64,000 nucleotides of DNA from Candidatus Woesearchaeota archaeon. GTDB lineage: Archaea > Nanobdellota > Nanobdellia > Woesearchaeales > 0-14-0-80-44-23. Below are positions 1,871 through 15,636 of the stretch, piece after piece. The stretch covers positions 768,001 to 832,000 of the forward strand of contig JAVZCZ010000001.1 of NCBI GenBank assembly GCA_038874135.1, read 5' to 3'. Made by a program: the position numbers and the translations under genes. The notes below the pieces were generated by a model, which was not told the DNA's origin, made no database searches, and saw only the letters and a list, made by a program, of their open reading frames with translations. Numbering within the stretch: the stretch's first letter is position 1; each line of letters starts with the position of its first letter.

Positions 1871-4800
1871 AACGCAGCATAACTTTTGGAATAATTTTTC
1901 TACTTTTAATAGCATTATCTCTAAAAATTTCCAGTGCGAGCTGTCCGGAAATAATACTTTCATCCAACACCACTATAAAAGATGTAGATATAAAAATAAA
2001 AGTTTCAGGGCAGACACAAGAGTCAGAATTAGTGATAAGAACGCCTTCAGGTCCGTATCGTCTTTTAGGAGATATTCCTTCCCTTACAAGCTTTACTCCA
2101 AAAGATGTAGGTAACTACTCTGTTGAAGTTTGGCAGGACAAAGTGCTGTGTGACATAAAAAATTTTACCGCACTACCTCACAATAACTCGACACTATTCC
2201 TTCCGCCAATACTTTCCACAGATAAAAAAGAATACCACTTAGGTGAAGCTGTTAGAATTTCACTCTCACCAGAATATTACGGTTACTCAATTGAAGGTTT
2301 AAATTTAAAACTGTTGACAGGACAGCAATCCTACTCTCTCTTAGGGGAAATATCTGAGGATATAGAATTCCGACCTGTTTTTGAGGGTAACTATACAATT
2401 CTCTTATTAGACTCCATTGGAAATACTCTTGCTTCTGAAAGCTTTTCCGTCTACGCTTTGAATAGTTACTTTGTTAATAACTTATCTATTAAAAAACGAT
2501 TTTCGGACAAATTTGAATACAACATCAGCACTAATTCAGAAGACATGATTGTTGAATTCTCAAACTCCTTCATTAAAAGACTAAACCTAAAGAAACTATC
2601 TTCAAGTAATCTGGCGATAGTTAGGATTTCAGAGTTACTGCCGGAAGAGAGGAGCCGTCTGAATATTCCTACAATTGGAGGTGAAATTAAAGAATCTTTT
2701 GAATTAGATCCTTCCGCCCTAAACTTTTCAGAAGGTGAACTAACAATTGTCCCTTCAGGAAATGAGCTGTGGAAGTGCACTGATTGGAATTATGATGCTC
2801 AGTATTGTGTCGGAAGTTGGATCAAGCAGCAGAATCTTGTTCCCGGTGTTGAAAATGTAATTAAGTTTAACCTTTCCGATCCAGGATATGCTATTGTTGC
2901 AACTGCTAACATAACTTCAATAGCAGCAGCAACCCTCTCTGAAAACTCTTTTGTAGTAGCATATTGCGATGATACAAATGATAGAACTGCTTTCAAGGTT
3001 TTCTGGGCTAATGGGAGTGTAAGAACTAATGAGGTGATAGTTGATTCAACTACTGGAAATTGTGGTTACACCTCAGTTTCTGTTTCAGCACTTACCAACA
3101 ACTCTTTTGTTATCGGATGGATTGATACTGCCAGCAGTTATGCCAGCTTCGCTGTTTATGATGCCTCTGGAAATGTTATTACTCCAAGGGTGGATGTGGA
3201 TACTACTGCTGGTACTTCCCGTTCTGTGAGTGTGTCTGCTTTTAATAGTTCTGCTTTTGTTTTTGGTTGGTATGATCAGGCTTCTGCTTATGCTTCTTTT
3301 AGGACTTTTAGTTCTTCTGGTGTGGCTATTTCTTCTGTTGTTAATGTGGATACTACTGCTGGTACTTGTAATGCTGTTTCTGTTTCTGCGGTTAATTCTT
3401 CTGCTTTTGTTTTTGGCTGGTATGATCAGGCTTCTTCTGATATGACTTTTCGTACTTATACTTCTTCTGGCGTTGCGATTTCTGCCGTGACTGATGTGAA
3501 TACTAAGGTGGGTACTGGTTCTTTTTCTGTTTCTGTTGCTGCTTATAATTCTAGTGCTTTTGTTATTGTTTGGTATGATCAGAGGCTGGGTTATGTTAGT
3601 TTTCGTCAGTATTCTGTTGCTGGTGTTCAGATTGGGAGTCAGGTTAATCCGGATACTGCTGTTGGGACTACTGCTTCTGGTGTTTTTGTTTCTTCTGTTG
3701 GTGTGAATTCTAGTGTTTTTGCTGTGGGTTGGAATGATTTGACTACTGATGTTGTTAGTTCTGTGAGGACTTATAGTGGTGCTGGTGCTGCTGTTTCTTC
3801 TGAGGTGGTTGTGCAGGCTAATGCTTTGAAGTATAATGCTCTTGCCGGCTACTACCCTGCTACAGGCATAGGTTTCTGCAATGGAAACTTTGTAGCAATA
3901 ATTGTTAATACTTCTTCGCAGGCATTTTTTAAAGCATACATGCCTAATGGAAGCGAATGGGACGGAAACTGTCCTGATGTTATACCGCCTCAAGTTGTTC
4001 TGAATAGTCCTCAGCAAGCCGCTGTCTTCTATAGTGATACTGTGGATTTTAATTTTACAGTAACCGACAATGTAGATTTAGTAATTCCAAACTGTACCCT
4101 TTGGATAAACACTTCATCAACATTCTCTCCAAACATAACAATTTACAATATAACCTCTAATAAGATGAACAACATAACTCTATCTCAAATTCCAGACAAC
4201 AAATACATTTGGAATGTCAGGTGTTATGACAATGCAGGCAACTCAGCATTTGCTTCTTCAAATTTTTCATTATTTATCAACAAGAATCCACCTCAAATCT
4301 TGAACCCCCTCCTGAATGAAAGTACAGTAAATCAGAGCCATTCAGTAAAGTTTAATGTCTCAATAACCGATTCATATGGTATAGACTCTGCATATATAAC
4401 TATGATGTACCCAAACGGTTCATCAAATAATTATTATCTTAATAGAAGTGGGAATGAATTTTACTTCATAATTAATAATACAATCCAGATAGGAACATAT
4501 TCTGTGATATATGTGTGGGCTAATGATACCCTCGGACAAAACTCTTCTCTAACCCTTTCAGATCTCCAGTTTAATGTCACGCCTTCACCACCTGCTCAAT
4601 TCAACCTTTTAAGTCCCCCGAATGCAACAGAGTCAACAAACCTGCGACCAAACTTGACTTGGGAGACATCTTACGATGAGACATTCCTTAATTATACTAT
4701 TCAGATTTCTCAGGATGAAAACTTCGCAACAGTACTCTTTACATATTATAATCCGGGTGTTTATAATACTTCAAGAGTGCTGGATTATGCCCTAGAAGCG

Positions 4801-13377: not shown

Positions 13378-15636
13378 ATGTTGAAATATAATCAGAGGTT
13401 TATTTTATATGCATCATTTCTAATTTTAATAGCAGCACTTTCCAGTATGGCAGCTGCTGCTCCAATAACATTTTCTACACACTTCTTAGCTCCTATAGCA
13501 GTCGCTTCTCTGTCTAGAGACTCATTCGTAATCGCGTATTGTGACAATACCTCCGCCAAGGTCGCCTTTCAAATTTATAGAACTAATGGCACCCAGCTCC
13601 TTGCAGAGCGGGATGTGGACACAACACTTGGAACAAACCCTTGCGGTTACACTTCAGTTGCAGTTTCAGCTTTTAATTCAACACACTTTGTTATCGGCTG
13701 GATAGACAGCGGAAGCTCTTATGCAAGCTTTCAAGTGTTTGATATAAATGGGAATCCATATTCCAGCAGGGTGGATGTGGATACTACTGCTGGTACTTCC
13801 CGTTCTGTGAGTGTGTCTGCTTTTAATAGTTCTGCTTTTGTTTTTGGTTGGTATGATCAGGCTTCTGCTTATGCTTCTTTTAGGACTTTTAGTTCTTCTG
13901 GTGTGGCTATTTCTTCTGTTGTTAATGTGGATACTACTGCTGGTACTTGTAATGCTGTTTCTGTTTCTGCGGTTAATTCTTCTGCTTTTGTTTTTGGCTG
14001 GTATGATCAGGCTTCTTCTGATATGACTTTTCGTACTTATACTTCTTCTGGCGTTGCGATTTCTGCCGTGACTGATGTGAATACTAAGGTGGGTACTGGT
14101 TCTTTTTCTGTTTCTGTTGCTGCTTATAATTCTAGTGCTTTTGTTATTGTTTGGTATGATCAGAGGCTGGGTTATGTTAGTTTTCGTCAGTATTCTGTTG
14201 CTGGTGTTCAGATTGGGAGTCAGGTTAATCCGGATACTGCTGTTGGGACTACTGCTTCTGGTGTTTTTGTTTCTTCTGTTGGTGTGAATTCTAGTGTTTT
14301 TGCTGTGGGTTGGAATGATTTGACTACTGATGTTGTTAGTTCTGTGAGGACTTATAGTGGTGCTGGTGCTGCTGTTTCTTCTGAGGTGGTTGTGCAGGCT
14401 AATGCTTTGAAGTATAATGCTCTGGCTGGCTACTACCCTGCCACGGGCATACGCATGTGTGACAACGCATTCGTAATAGCAATTTCTAATACAAGCACGC
14501 AAGCATTCTTCACAGGATATTATGCCAATGGAACCAACTGGAATGGAATATGCACGCCTCCGAATATGAACTCATCTAAAATAACCTCTTCAGAAGATAA
14601 CTTTTACTACAATGCAACCCTGATTGGATGGTGCAATGCAACCCATCCTGACAGCCAAAACATCTCATACTACTACAACTGGTACCTAAACGGGCTATTA
14701 AACAAAAGTGGACAAACACAGTATAGCACTCCAGGAGTCGCAGTGAATGTGGATAACATAACCTCATCATACCTCTCAATAGGCCAAAACTGGACTTTGG
14801 AATGCATTGCCTATGACGGATTATCCAACTCAACACCTCTCAACTCGACAGCAGTGACAATAGTGGATATAAATAGGCCTCCCCTGATAACCTCAATTCT
14901 TTTGGACGATGACATCCTTGCTCCTTCTTTTCAGATAGATTTATCTGCGGGCTCAACTAAAAGGGTTAATTGTAATGGCACAATTCAGGATCCAGATGGA
15001 ATCTCAGACATTGTGAGCATATCAGCAGTACTTTACGCTTCTGGCAACGGCACTCTTCCTACATTTCCCGAAGACAATAACACATTATACCGAAACTACA
15101 GCTGCTCACTATCCCAAATAAACCTGACCTCTGGCTCTTTTAACTGCTCATTCGCATTGTGGTATTATGCCCAAAACGGCACCTGGACATGCAATGTTAC
15201 TATTAATGACACAAAGTCCCACTACGCTTCAGCAATAATAAATTCAACTGTTAACGAGCTGGTGGCATTTGAAGTTTTCCCACTAACAGTTGACTATGGC
15301 AATATGGCTCCTGGAAGCACCAGCGCGTCTTCAACAAATCTGCTAATAACCAATATGGGCAATACAAAAATTGACTTAATACTTAATGGCACCAACATGA
15401 GCTGCACCTTAGGATTTGTAGGAGCTTCAAACCAGCATTATAATTTGACAGGGTTTGACCAGGAATATTCTAATATGAGAGCACTTACCGAGCTTCCGTT
15501 TACCGCTTCAGATTTTGACCTTCAAAAGCGTGTAACCTCGGAAGCTAACAGGACTGCCTATTGGCGCGTTCAAATCCCTACAGGCGTTAAGGGAAGATGT
15601 CTAGGTATAATTCAGCTGACAGCTCAGAAGGGTTAA
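13378..15636 (+). CDS. Secreted adhesin-like protein: propeller + Ig-like module + family-B C-terminal region
   Basis: Signal peptide. Propeller repeats shared with 1867..9705. LLDD...IDLSAGS...YYAQNGTWTCNVT...YWRVQIPTGVKGRC. Confidence 0.85.
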   Translation: MLKYNQRFILYASFLILIAALSSMAAAAPITFSTHFLAPIAVASLSRDSFVIAYCDNTSAKVAFQIYRTNGTQLLAERDVDTTLGTNPCGYTSVAVSAFNSTHFVIGWIDSGSSYASFQVFDINGNPYSSRVDVDTTAGTSRSVSVSAFNSSAFVFGWYDQASAYASFRTFSSSGVAISSVVNVDTTAGTCNAVSVSAVNSSAFVFGWYDQASSDMTFRTYTSSGVAISAVTDVNTKVGTGSFSVSVAAYNSSAFVIVWYDQRLGYVSFRQYSVAGVQIGSQVNPDTAVGTTASGVFVSSVGVNSSVFAVGWNDLTTDVVSSVRTYSGAGAAVSSEVVVQANALKYNALAGYYPATGIRMCDNAFVIAISNTSTQAFFTGYYANGTNWNGICTPPNMNSSKITSSEDNFYYNATLIGWCNATHPDSQNISYYYNWYLNGLLNKSGQTQYSTPGVAVNVDNITSSYLSIGQNWTLECIAYDGLSNSTPLNSTAVTIVDINRPPLITSILLDDDILAPSFQIDLSAGSTKRVNCNGTIQDPDGISDIVSISAVLYASGNGTLPTFPEDNNTLYRNYSCSLSQINLTSGSFNCSFALWYYAQNGTWTCNVTINDTKSHYASAIINSTVNELVAFEVFPLTVDYGNMAPGSTSASSTNLLITNMGNTKIDLILNGTNMSCTLGFVGASNQHYNLTGFDQEYSNMRALTELPFTASDFDLQKRVTSEANRTAYWRVQIPTGVKGRCLGIIQLTAQKG
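13768..14423 (+). repeat. 656-bp exact repeat, copy 2
   Basis: Identical to 3187-3842. Confidence 0.95.

Follow-up and report, generated by a model that had tools for sequence, protein, structure and literature searches.

How two neighboring, diverged surface-protein genes come to share a stretch of DNA that is identical letter for letter, and in which nearly every codon ends in G or T, is the question raised by the 64-kb window analyzed here (the whole stretch of DNA under study, to which coordinates refer unless prefixed). The window belongs to a genome assembled as one contig of 909,956 bp (hereafter G000), and its archaeal small-subunit rRNA, together with its size of 0.91 Mb, 41% G+C and completeness of 99.4%, identifies the source organism as a DPANN-type archaeon. 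The shared stretch, a 656-bp cassette, lies in two genes for adhesin-like proteins: gene 1 (1867-9705, plus strand), encoding a giant surface protein of 2612 aa with an N-terminal hydrophobic segment and a propeller at residues ~352-700, followed by Big_7, Big_13 and CARDB domains (Pfam); and gene 2 (13378-15636, plus strand), encoding a secreted or surface protein of 752 aa with a propeller at residues ~40-400 and no Pfam match.

With a probability that we place at roughly 0.75, our results indicate that the cassette is a GRINS-type gene-conversion tract between two old paralogous propeller genes, recoded in place by a process tied to replication. A 2021 study described GRINS as widespread recoding elements by which modular enzymes evolve faster; these repeats exceed 500 bp in length and 80% in identity, their absolute GC skew and TA skew both average above 0.15, the skew is strongest at third codon positions and shifts amino-acid use, and they have been linked to gene conversion (PMC8256042).

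An identical, recoded cassette in two propeller genes

The two copies of the cassette, located at 3187-3842 (gene 1, codons 441-658) and 13768-14423 (gene 2, codons 131-348) on the plus strand, are exactly 656 bp long without a mismatch, start at codon phase 0 in both genes and are found 10.6 kb apart in direct orientation, the adjoining bases differing on both sides. Further copies had been proposed as a check in a preliminary description of this DNA; BLAST against the complete contig returned two copies plus self-matches of ~71% among the internal blades, and no third copy in the 909,956 bp. Third bases of the 218 complete codons are T in 173, G in 41, C in 4 (TCC, GGC, GGC and GCC) and A in none, with Lys, Gln and Glu encoded exclusively by AAG, CAG and GAG, every two-fold purine site being G. 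Outside the cassette, third positions of gene 1 have a keto (G or T) share of 0.49, and by this share the chance of finding 214 or more keto-ending codons among 218 is ~5e-60. The keto share of the cassette reaches 98% at third, 72% at first and 45% at second codon positions, and the GC and TA skews of the gene 1 copy are +0.29 and +0.52, respectively.

These counts reproduce those of the preliminary description, and its further claim that the bias switches off sharply at both edges, between homologous flanks that have diverged, was borne out by a codon alignment of both genes, in which gene 2 residues 40-544 are paired with gene 1 residues 352-854. The flanking blades show 42-69% nucleotide identity and 20-60% third-position identity between the genes, compared with 100% in the cassette, and are homologous, with a divergence that is old. 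At the borders of identity, the share of G/T-ending codons rises from ~0.3-0.7 outside to 0.9-1.0 inside, and skew and identity stop within a few codons of one another at each edge. On the left, blades 1-2 of gene 1 (2920-3186, plus strand) are homologous to 13495-13767 of gene 2, diverged to the same 42-69% and written in ordinary codons; on the right, 25 of the 30 bases at 3843-3872 (plus strand) match 14424-14453, ordinary codons (GGC, TAC, TAC ...) are resumed, and the end of the skew coincides with the exact end of perfect identity.

The propeller domain, for which no Pfam family was matched, was predicted with AlphaFold from a nine-sequence alignment to be a seven-bladed beta-propeller (predicted local distance difference test score 90.6; predicted template modeling score 0.91). 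Its predicted strands fall into seven groups, six of four and a last one of three, where the model ends, and the top PDB matches retrieved with Foldseek were the propeller domains of prolyl oligopeptidases and sialidases, with template modeling (TM) scores of about 0.5. Mapped onto this model, the cassette would cover about blades 3-6.

Both copies are also spanned by long antisense open reading frames, one of 310 aa at 3085-4017 (minus strand) and its codon-aligned twin at 13678-14502. As no sense codon of the cassette ends in A, no antisense codon can start with T and antisense stops are impossible; these frames are therefore a by-product of the skew and not genes.

Concerted evolution of the inner blades

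Nine related loci obtained from a metagenome scan were placed in a codon alignment with both genes. In the flanks, orthologues group together with 64-89% identity and paralogues share 55-60%, whereas inside the tract the paralogues are 100% identical and the orthologues 65-80%. Furthermore, one relative carries a tract of its own: two paralogues (L007 and L008) on one 36-kb contig (Ga0210051_1000514) have in common 385 bp with one mismatch, with the same left edge as the cassette, an earlier right end and a weak skew (G/T-ending codons 47-73%). These comparisons support the gene conversion between adhesins put forward in the preliminary description. The survey of relatives that it recommended recovered this second conversion tract, and a skew that is not constant among them: two loci (L009 and L012) use ordinary codons (20-67% G/T-ending), a third (L010) reaches 93-100% over most of the tract, and a fourth (L011) shows 100% over all the blades present, its contig ending in the fifth blade.

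Alignment columns 240-331, which are converted in G000 only, display 67-79% identity to gene-2-type orthologues and 56% to gene-1-type ones; since this part is nearer to the former, the short gene 2 was likely the donor and gene 1 the recipient, at least as far as the 3' part is concerned. At the level of sequence, the alignments demonstrate concerted evolution by repeated gene conversion, with recoding in place. Because orthologues at the same locus range from unskewed to fully skewed and differ in their tract borders, import of the cassette from a G/T-skewed donor, which had also been considered at the outset, is practically excluded.

The assemblies were inspected as well. The contigs of L010, L011, L013 and the same-genus genome G001 end inside the cassette, as a repeat would predict, that of G001 stopping ~30 codons into it. 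A second deposited assembly (GCA_038871545.1), which differs at 2 positions in 8.3 kb, has both proteins without any change on a single 252-kb contig.

A swap of binding specificity had been suggested as a possible outcome of such exchange; what is seen is the homogenization of the two genes, together with a possible hybrid gene in one relative. This gene (L006:6001-7077, contig Ga0210049_1002054) matches the gene-1-type paralogue L007 at 100% until the shared tract ends, and the gene-2-type paralogue L008 at 100% from where the tract starts; either crossing-over within the repeat has deleted ~10 kb, or the contig is a chimera of metagenome assembly.

A and C are both replaced, mostly by T

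The spectrum of changes was obtained with the unskewed orthologue L009 as reference, at sites with an unchanged amino acid. From L009 to the cassette, 33 changes of A to T stand against 4 of A to G, C became T at 31 sites, and G and T were kept at 13 of 18 and 44 of 49 sites, respectively. Non-synonymous changes (Ile to Val, Thr to Ser or Val, Ala to Val or Gly) raised the keto content in 41 cases and lowered it in 16. At the fourfold sites of three unrelated tracts, T accounts for 0.74-0.83, G for 0.13-0.21, C for 0.03-0.05 and A for 0-0.02, the background being T 0.33, G 0.12, C 0.17 and A 0.38. The aligned sites show that A and C have evidently both been lost, T being used wherever permitted and G only where a purine is forced. 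A pure transition model (A to G plus C to T) was rejected, as it would give about half G, against the 33:4 ratio of A-to-T over A-to-G at free sites.

Skewed tracts follow the replichores, not the coding strand

The cassette is not alone in its composition. The preliminary description had regarded extreme G/T stretches in single-copy genes, if common, as a difficulty for its reading; near-pure stretches do recur in G000, where a scan of all long frames found seven with at least 93% G/T at third positions and a composition scan found 18 skewed stretches, but the intense ones are repeats. Among these tracts is a 100%-identical pair of 1156 bp in two ATPase genes. The longest T/G-coded tract of the genome, a Cys-rich coding stretch of 1.4 kb located 24 kb before the window (G000:C1:744070-745492), has third bases T 371, G 84, C 13 and A 5, and an internal 219-bp repeat with 98.6% identity.

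Several tracts in minus-strand genes (for example at G000 positions 671955-672511, 676411-676689, 677917-678202 and 680113-680609) use A/C-ending sense codons, so that the plus strand is still G+T-rich; given this mirror skew, the skew is independent of the coding strand. The cumulative GC skew of G000 turns at ~93 kb and ~602 kb, with a replication component of ~+/-0.045 after separating genes by strand. From 602 kb to 93 kb, through the contig ends, the plus strand is G+T-rich in 9 of 9 tract families, and from 93 to 602 kb it is A+C-rich in 4 of 5. This rule spans genes of both orientations (Fisher about 0.005 by hand, the families being not fully independent). A further tract at G000:C1:293041-293628, made of tandem 63-bp units with 99% identity in a plus-strand gene and with a strongly A-rich sense strand, was also observed and fits the same rule.

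A second complete genome of the same order (G099; 1,131,583 bp) has its GC skew minimum at 412 kb and its orc1/cdc6 orthologue at 439724-440953. To the left of this region, 10 of 10 tracts are A+C-rich on the plus strand, and from there up to 950 kb, 15 of 18 are G+T-rich; overall, the replichore rule is obeyed by 27 of 31 tracts and by every repeated family, including a 99.5%-identical pair in minus-strand genes with codons ending in A/C. Tract polarity therefore switches with the replichore in two complete genomes, and since in G000 the G+T-rich tract strand switches at both turning points of the bulk GC skew, the recoding is coupled to DNA replication rather than to transcription or translation. 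The strongly strand-biased process of the preliminary description is upheld by these results, and the question that it posed, whether the skew follows the coding strand or the replichore, is answered for the replichore in both genomes; its cDNA or transcription-linked variant fails, given the mirror skew in opposite-strand genes of G000 and G099 and no match to RVT_1 in the 99.4%-complete genome. One five-member gene family of G099 (G099:C1:477451-494836 and 277444-278055), whose 5' 550-690 bp are T/G-coded and 81-94% identical, has one copy that is inverted and located in the other replichore, with mirrored plus-strand skew.

Archaeal origins usually lie beside orc1/cdc6. In G000 the sole close orc1/cdc6 gene (587705-588946) adjoins the turn at 602 kb; a distant second paralogue is found at 659758-660801 on the minus strand. 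If the origin is beside orc1/cdc6, the G+T-rich strand of the tracts is the leading strand in both genomes, an assignment that we consider somewhat more probable than not. The orc1/cdc6 gene lies at the GC-skew maximum in G000 and at the minimum in G099, the polarity of the bulk skew relative to the likely origin being inverted in G000.

Repair genes and the load of skewed tracts in the order

Searches of G000 gave no match to RVT_1, IMS (Y-family polymerase), family-4/5 uracil-DNA glycosylase (UDG), Endonuclease V or MutS; the genome has RadA and a paralogue, two HhH-GPD glycosylases and a NucS/EndoMS mismatch endonuclease. The latter is encoded within the window (60166-60915, minus strand) as a full-length protein of 249 aa, with an N-terminal PH-like domain (NucS_N) and a C-terminal nuclease domain (NucS_C; Pfam, 73.5 and 133.3 bits) and a match to the solved EndoMS structure PDB 5GKE (E 3e-54). 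NucS favors G-T, G-G and T-T mismatches and acts on A-C weakly or not at all; it introduces double-strand breaks and restrains recombination between homeologous sequences (PMC8228993). This blind spot, keto versus amino, mirrors the G+T versus A+C skew of the tracts, and the gene is a candidate factor in generating the skew.

Tract load was estimated in 151 genomes of the order by searching for 50 consecutive codon-spaced G/T positions with up to 2 mismatches. Low counts often corresponded to low-complexity DNA, and heavy load was set at 300 hits or more; the tracts sampled from three heavy-load genomes were complex sequence, and a backward-read control is uninformative for such a periodic pattern. 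G000 gave 1414 hits, and fifteen other genomes at least 300. NucS_C was strongly matched in 57 of the 151 genomes. With G000 left out, 14 of the 56 NucS-positive genomes were heavily loaded, as opposed to 1 of the 94 NucS-negative ones (Fisher 3.5e-6 with an odds ratio of 31, uncorrected for phylogeny); this single exception is 85% complete. We regard this association as a lead. Three genomes of the order (G047, G049 and G060), all with NucS, carry 1,800-7,800 hits, equivalent to 5-23 kb over many contigs, a load far above that of G000.

Two other candidates were discarded: missing uracil repair, as 10 of the 15 genomes with heavy load have UDG, and a Y-family polymerase, the error-prone enzyme proposed in the GRINS paper (PMC8256042), as no IMS match was found in G000.

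The cassette as a GRINS-type tract

Measured in 150-nt windows with a step of 30, the absolute GC skew of the cassette averages 0.27 and its absolute TA skew 0.55 (background of the whole 64-kb window, 0.17 and 0.14), which, at 656 bp and 100% identity, places it within the published limits of length, identity and skew. Both skews are positive in 17 of 17 positions of the 150-nt window in the cassette, and G goes together with T in tracts throughout the genome; within the tract, r is -0.48 over a narrow range and carries little information. The third-position strength (98% keto) and the amino-acid shift (41 changes up, 16 down) are those of GRINS, and tracts differ between genomes with like copies within a genome. 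The cassette is, therefore, a GRINS-type tract, an archaeal and adhesin-borne member of a known and unexplained class. The GRINS paper makes no mention of archaea (PMC8256042), and no publication linking GRINS to archaea was found in the literature searched.

The likeness extends to the occurrence of repeats of this length and identity in coding DNA, to the same sign of GC and TA skews, to the drift of amino acids toward G/T-rich codons, and to gene conversion between homologous modules with tracts that differ among related species. Unlike published GRINS, the present tract is archaeal and perfectly identical, resides in adhesin-type propeller genes and not in synthases or transposases, and is dominated by T instead of G, in an AT-rich genome. 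Moreover, polarity here follows the replichore in two complete genomes, a pattern absent from the GRINS paper, in which sign flips within one strand were stressed (PMC8256042).

Other known systems resemble the cassette in part. Replication strand asymmetry, which enriches the leading strand of bacteria and of some archaea in G and T, likewise pairs G with T and A with C and switches sign at the same two chromosome positions; however, the tracts are ~10x more intense, are confined to repeat patches of a few hundred bases and, in G000, are opposite to the bulk GC skew. As in the concerted evolution of prokaryotic paralogues by gene conversion and in cassette-based antigenic variation of surface proteins, paralogues are identical within and diverged between genomes, with borders inside surface-protein genes, but there are no silent cassette stores, the exchange homogenizes instead of diversifying, and a codon skew is present. 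Diversity-generating retroelements are common in DPANN archaea, and their copies would differ at template A positions. A repeated segment in a surface-protein gene and an odd distribution of adenine are shared with them; nevertheless, G000 is without a reverse transcriptase, both copies are coding and show 0 mismatches in 656 bp in place of variation at A, and the tract greatly exceeds the usual length of a variable region.

Genes adjoining the two adhesin genes

Four small open reading frames (ORFs; 164, 256, 230 and 305 aa) occupy 9874-13330, between the adhesin genes; they gave no significant Pfam match, and their order is the same in GCA_038871545.1. Upstream of gene 1, another giant Big/CARDB surface protein is encoded (2-1870; 2330 aa in the second assembly), the stop of which overlaps the start of gene 1 by 4 bases.

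Discussion

The reading that we propose can be set out as a sequence of steps. Homologous recombination, for which RadA is present in G000, repeatedly copies the inner blades between the two genes, the last event having copied at least the 3' part from the short into the giant gene. The shared stretch has been recoded in place, silent A and C becoming T, and A becoming G only where the amino acid needs a purine, with amino acids drifting toward those of G/T-rich codons. Repeat-to-repeat repair at the replication fork may expose or resynthesize the same strand in each round, and errors on that strand might escape NucS/EndoMS, the sole mismatch system present, or be biased by it, this enzyme cutting G-T, G-G and T-T mismatches and hardly A-C. 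Each changed copy would then be spread to its partner, such that the tract could ratchet to saturation while remaining identical. That the skew was built by rounds of repair at forks, with NucS involved, is put forward tentatively, as a suggestion that falls well short of the confidence given to the GRINS-type conversion tract itself. Its generalization is a shade more doubtful, namely that the skews of GRINS are the footprint of a replication-coupled repair cycle dependent on NucS/EndoMS, in which mismatch-triggered breaks in repeats would be repaired from the paralogue and the same fork-relative strand would lose A and C.

Several observations weigh against this proposal. Every step of the mechanism is inferred, and the A-to-T outcome at free sites does not fit a simple model of A-to-G plus C-to-T deamination or tautomers. 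The bulk GC skew of G000 is opposite in sign to that of its tracts, that of G099 having the same sign, and the assignment to the leading strand in G000 therefore depends on the position of orc1/cdc6 alone; the search for origin-recognition repeats beside this gene found nothing convincing in G000 or G099. Tract families are few and their copies are not independent. The NucS statistic ignores phylogeny, the pattern count also takes in low-complexity DNA and non-repeated skewed DNA, and heavy-load genomes are mildly enriched for UDG as well. Published GRINS include a sign flip within 1 kb on one strand, where a pure replichore rule fails, and have been reported in bacterial phyla using MutS/MutL (PMC8256042), from which it follows that NucS is not a universal requirement.

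For the base-changing step, two alternatives deserve consideration, and neither alone fits all the data. Damage to single-stranded DNA (ssDNA) alone is possible, if improbable: the leading-sense strand of the repeat would stay single-stranded during recombination-dependent synthesis, A and C would lose their amino groups, and the products would be excised or non-instructive, with A inserted opposite so that T results, NucS taking no part. The fate of A and C at free sites, both ending as T with G and T kept, is what such damage would leave; the polarity in G099 has the same sense as the classical replication skew, and G000 has two HhH-GPD glycosylases and no match to family-4/5 UDG or EndoV. 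Nonetheless, a lack of UDG is clearly unnecessary, judging by the 10 of 15 heavy-load genomes that have it, the association with NucS is not predicted, and G, which also depurinates, is mostly kept. Less probable again is a scenario without any special mutation, in which heteroduplexes of constant strand polarity undergo biased repair, NucS cutting G-T-type and sparing A-C-type mismatches, so that one allele class wins and the AT-rich background makes T commoner than G. The specificity of NucS (PMC8228993) and its association with tract load are in line with it, as are the fourfold T:G ratio of ~85:15, near the background keto ratio of 73:27, and the confinement of the skew to the converted tract. 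A fixation bias, however, should yield G from A at least as often as T, contrary to the 33 T and 4 G counted; by reasoning, the geometry of strand invasion would make the invading leading-sense strand A+C-rich, contrary to the observed polarity for an origin at orc1/cdc6; and single-copy skewed tracts exist.

Three further explanations would replace the GRINS-type conversion tract altogether, and all are very improbable. That an assembly or polishing step collapsed two diverged copies into one consensus might be suspected from a perfect 656-bp repeat that exceeds most short reads, and from the related metagenome contigs that break inside the cassette, but each copy keeps the frame and is bounded by unique, homologous flanks, in a genome that forms a single contig, GCA_038871545.1 encodes both proteins exactly, the related 36-kb contig spans both paralogues with its own near-identical tract (one mismatch), and a collapse cannot create a codon skew. 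Slighter still are the chances that the cassette entered both genes from a foreign G/T-extreme element, for example a single-stranded DNA virus or plasmid: the abrupt change in codon usage at both edges would agree with this, yet in the relatives the same blades are encoded at this position with a skew that is absent, weak or full and with other borders, the genome holds no third copy, the tract is closest to gene-2-type orthologues, and the same skew occurs in unrelated genes. Of equally low standing is a retro-element, cDNA or transcription-coupled process (similar to diversity-generating retroelements, or through mRNA editing), or a selection on codon usage or antisense genes. In the window, the skew does lie on the sense strand of both genes and long antisense frames are present; against this, there is no reverse transcriptase, the copies show no mismatch, opposite-strand genes carry the mirror skew on their sense strand, and the antisense frames arise automatically.

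With the GRINS-type conversion tract as the preferred reading, this 0.91-Mb genome offers an extreme and clean form of GRINS together with a very small repair tool-kit. The clues that it provides to the cause of GRINS are the flip of polarity with the replichore in two genomes, the replacement of A and C by T at free sites, and the heavy tract load that accompanies NucS among 150 genomes. The NucS-dependent cycle, if true, would explain why G is paired with T in the skew, why converted repeats are the ones marked, and why GRINS are abundant both in Streptomyces and in archaea that carry NucS. To the organism, the consequence of the process is that two adhesin-like proteins retain identical ligand-facing blades, and hybrid genes may also be formed by crossing-over.

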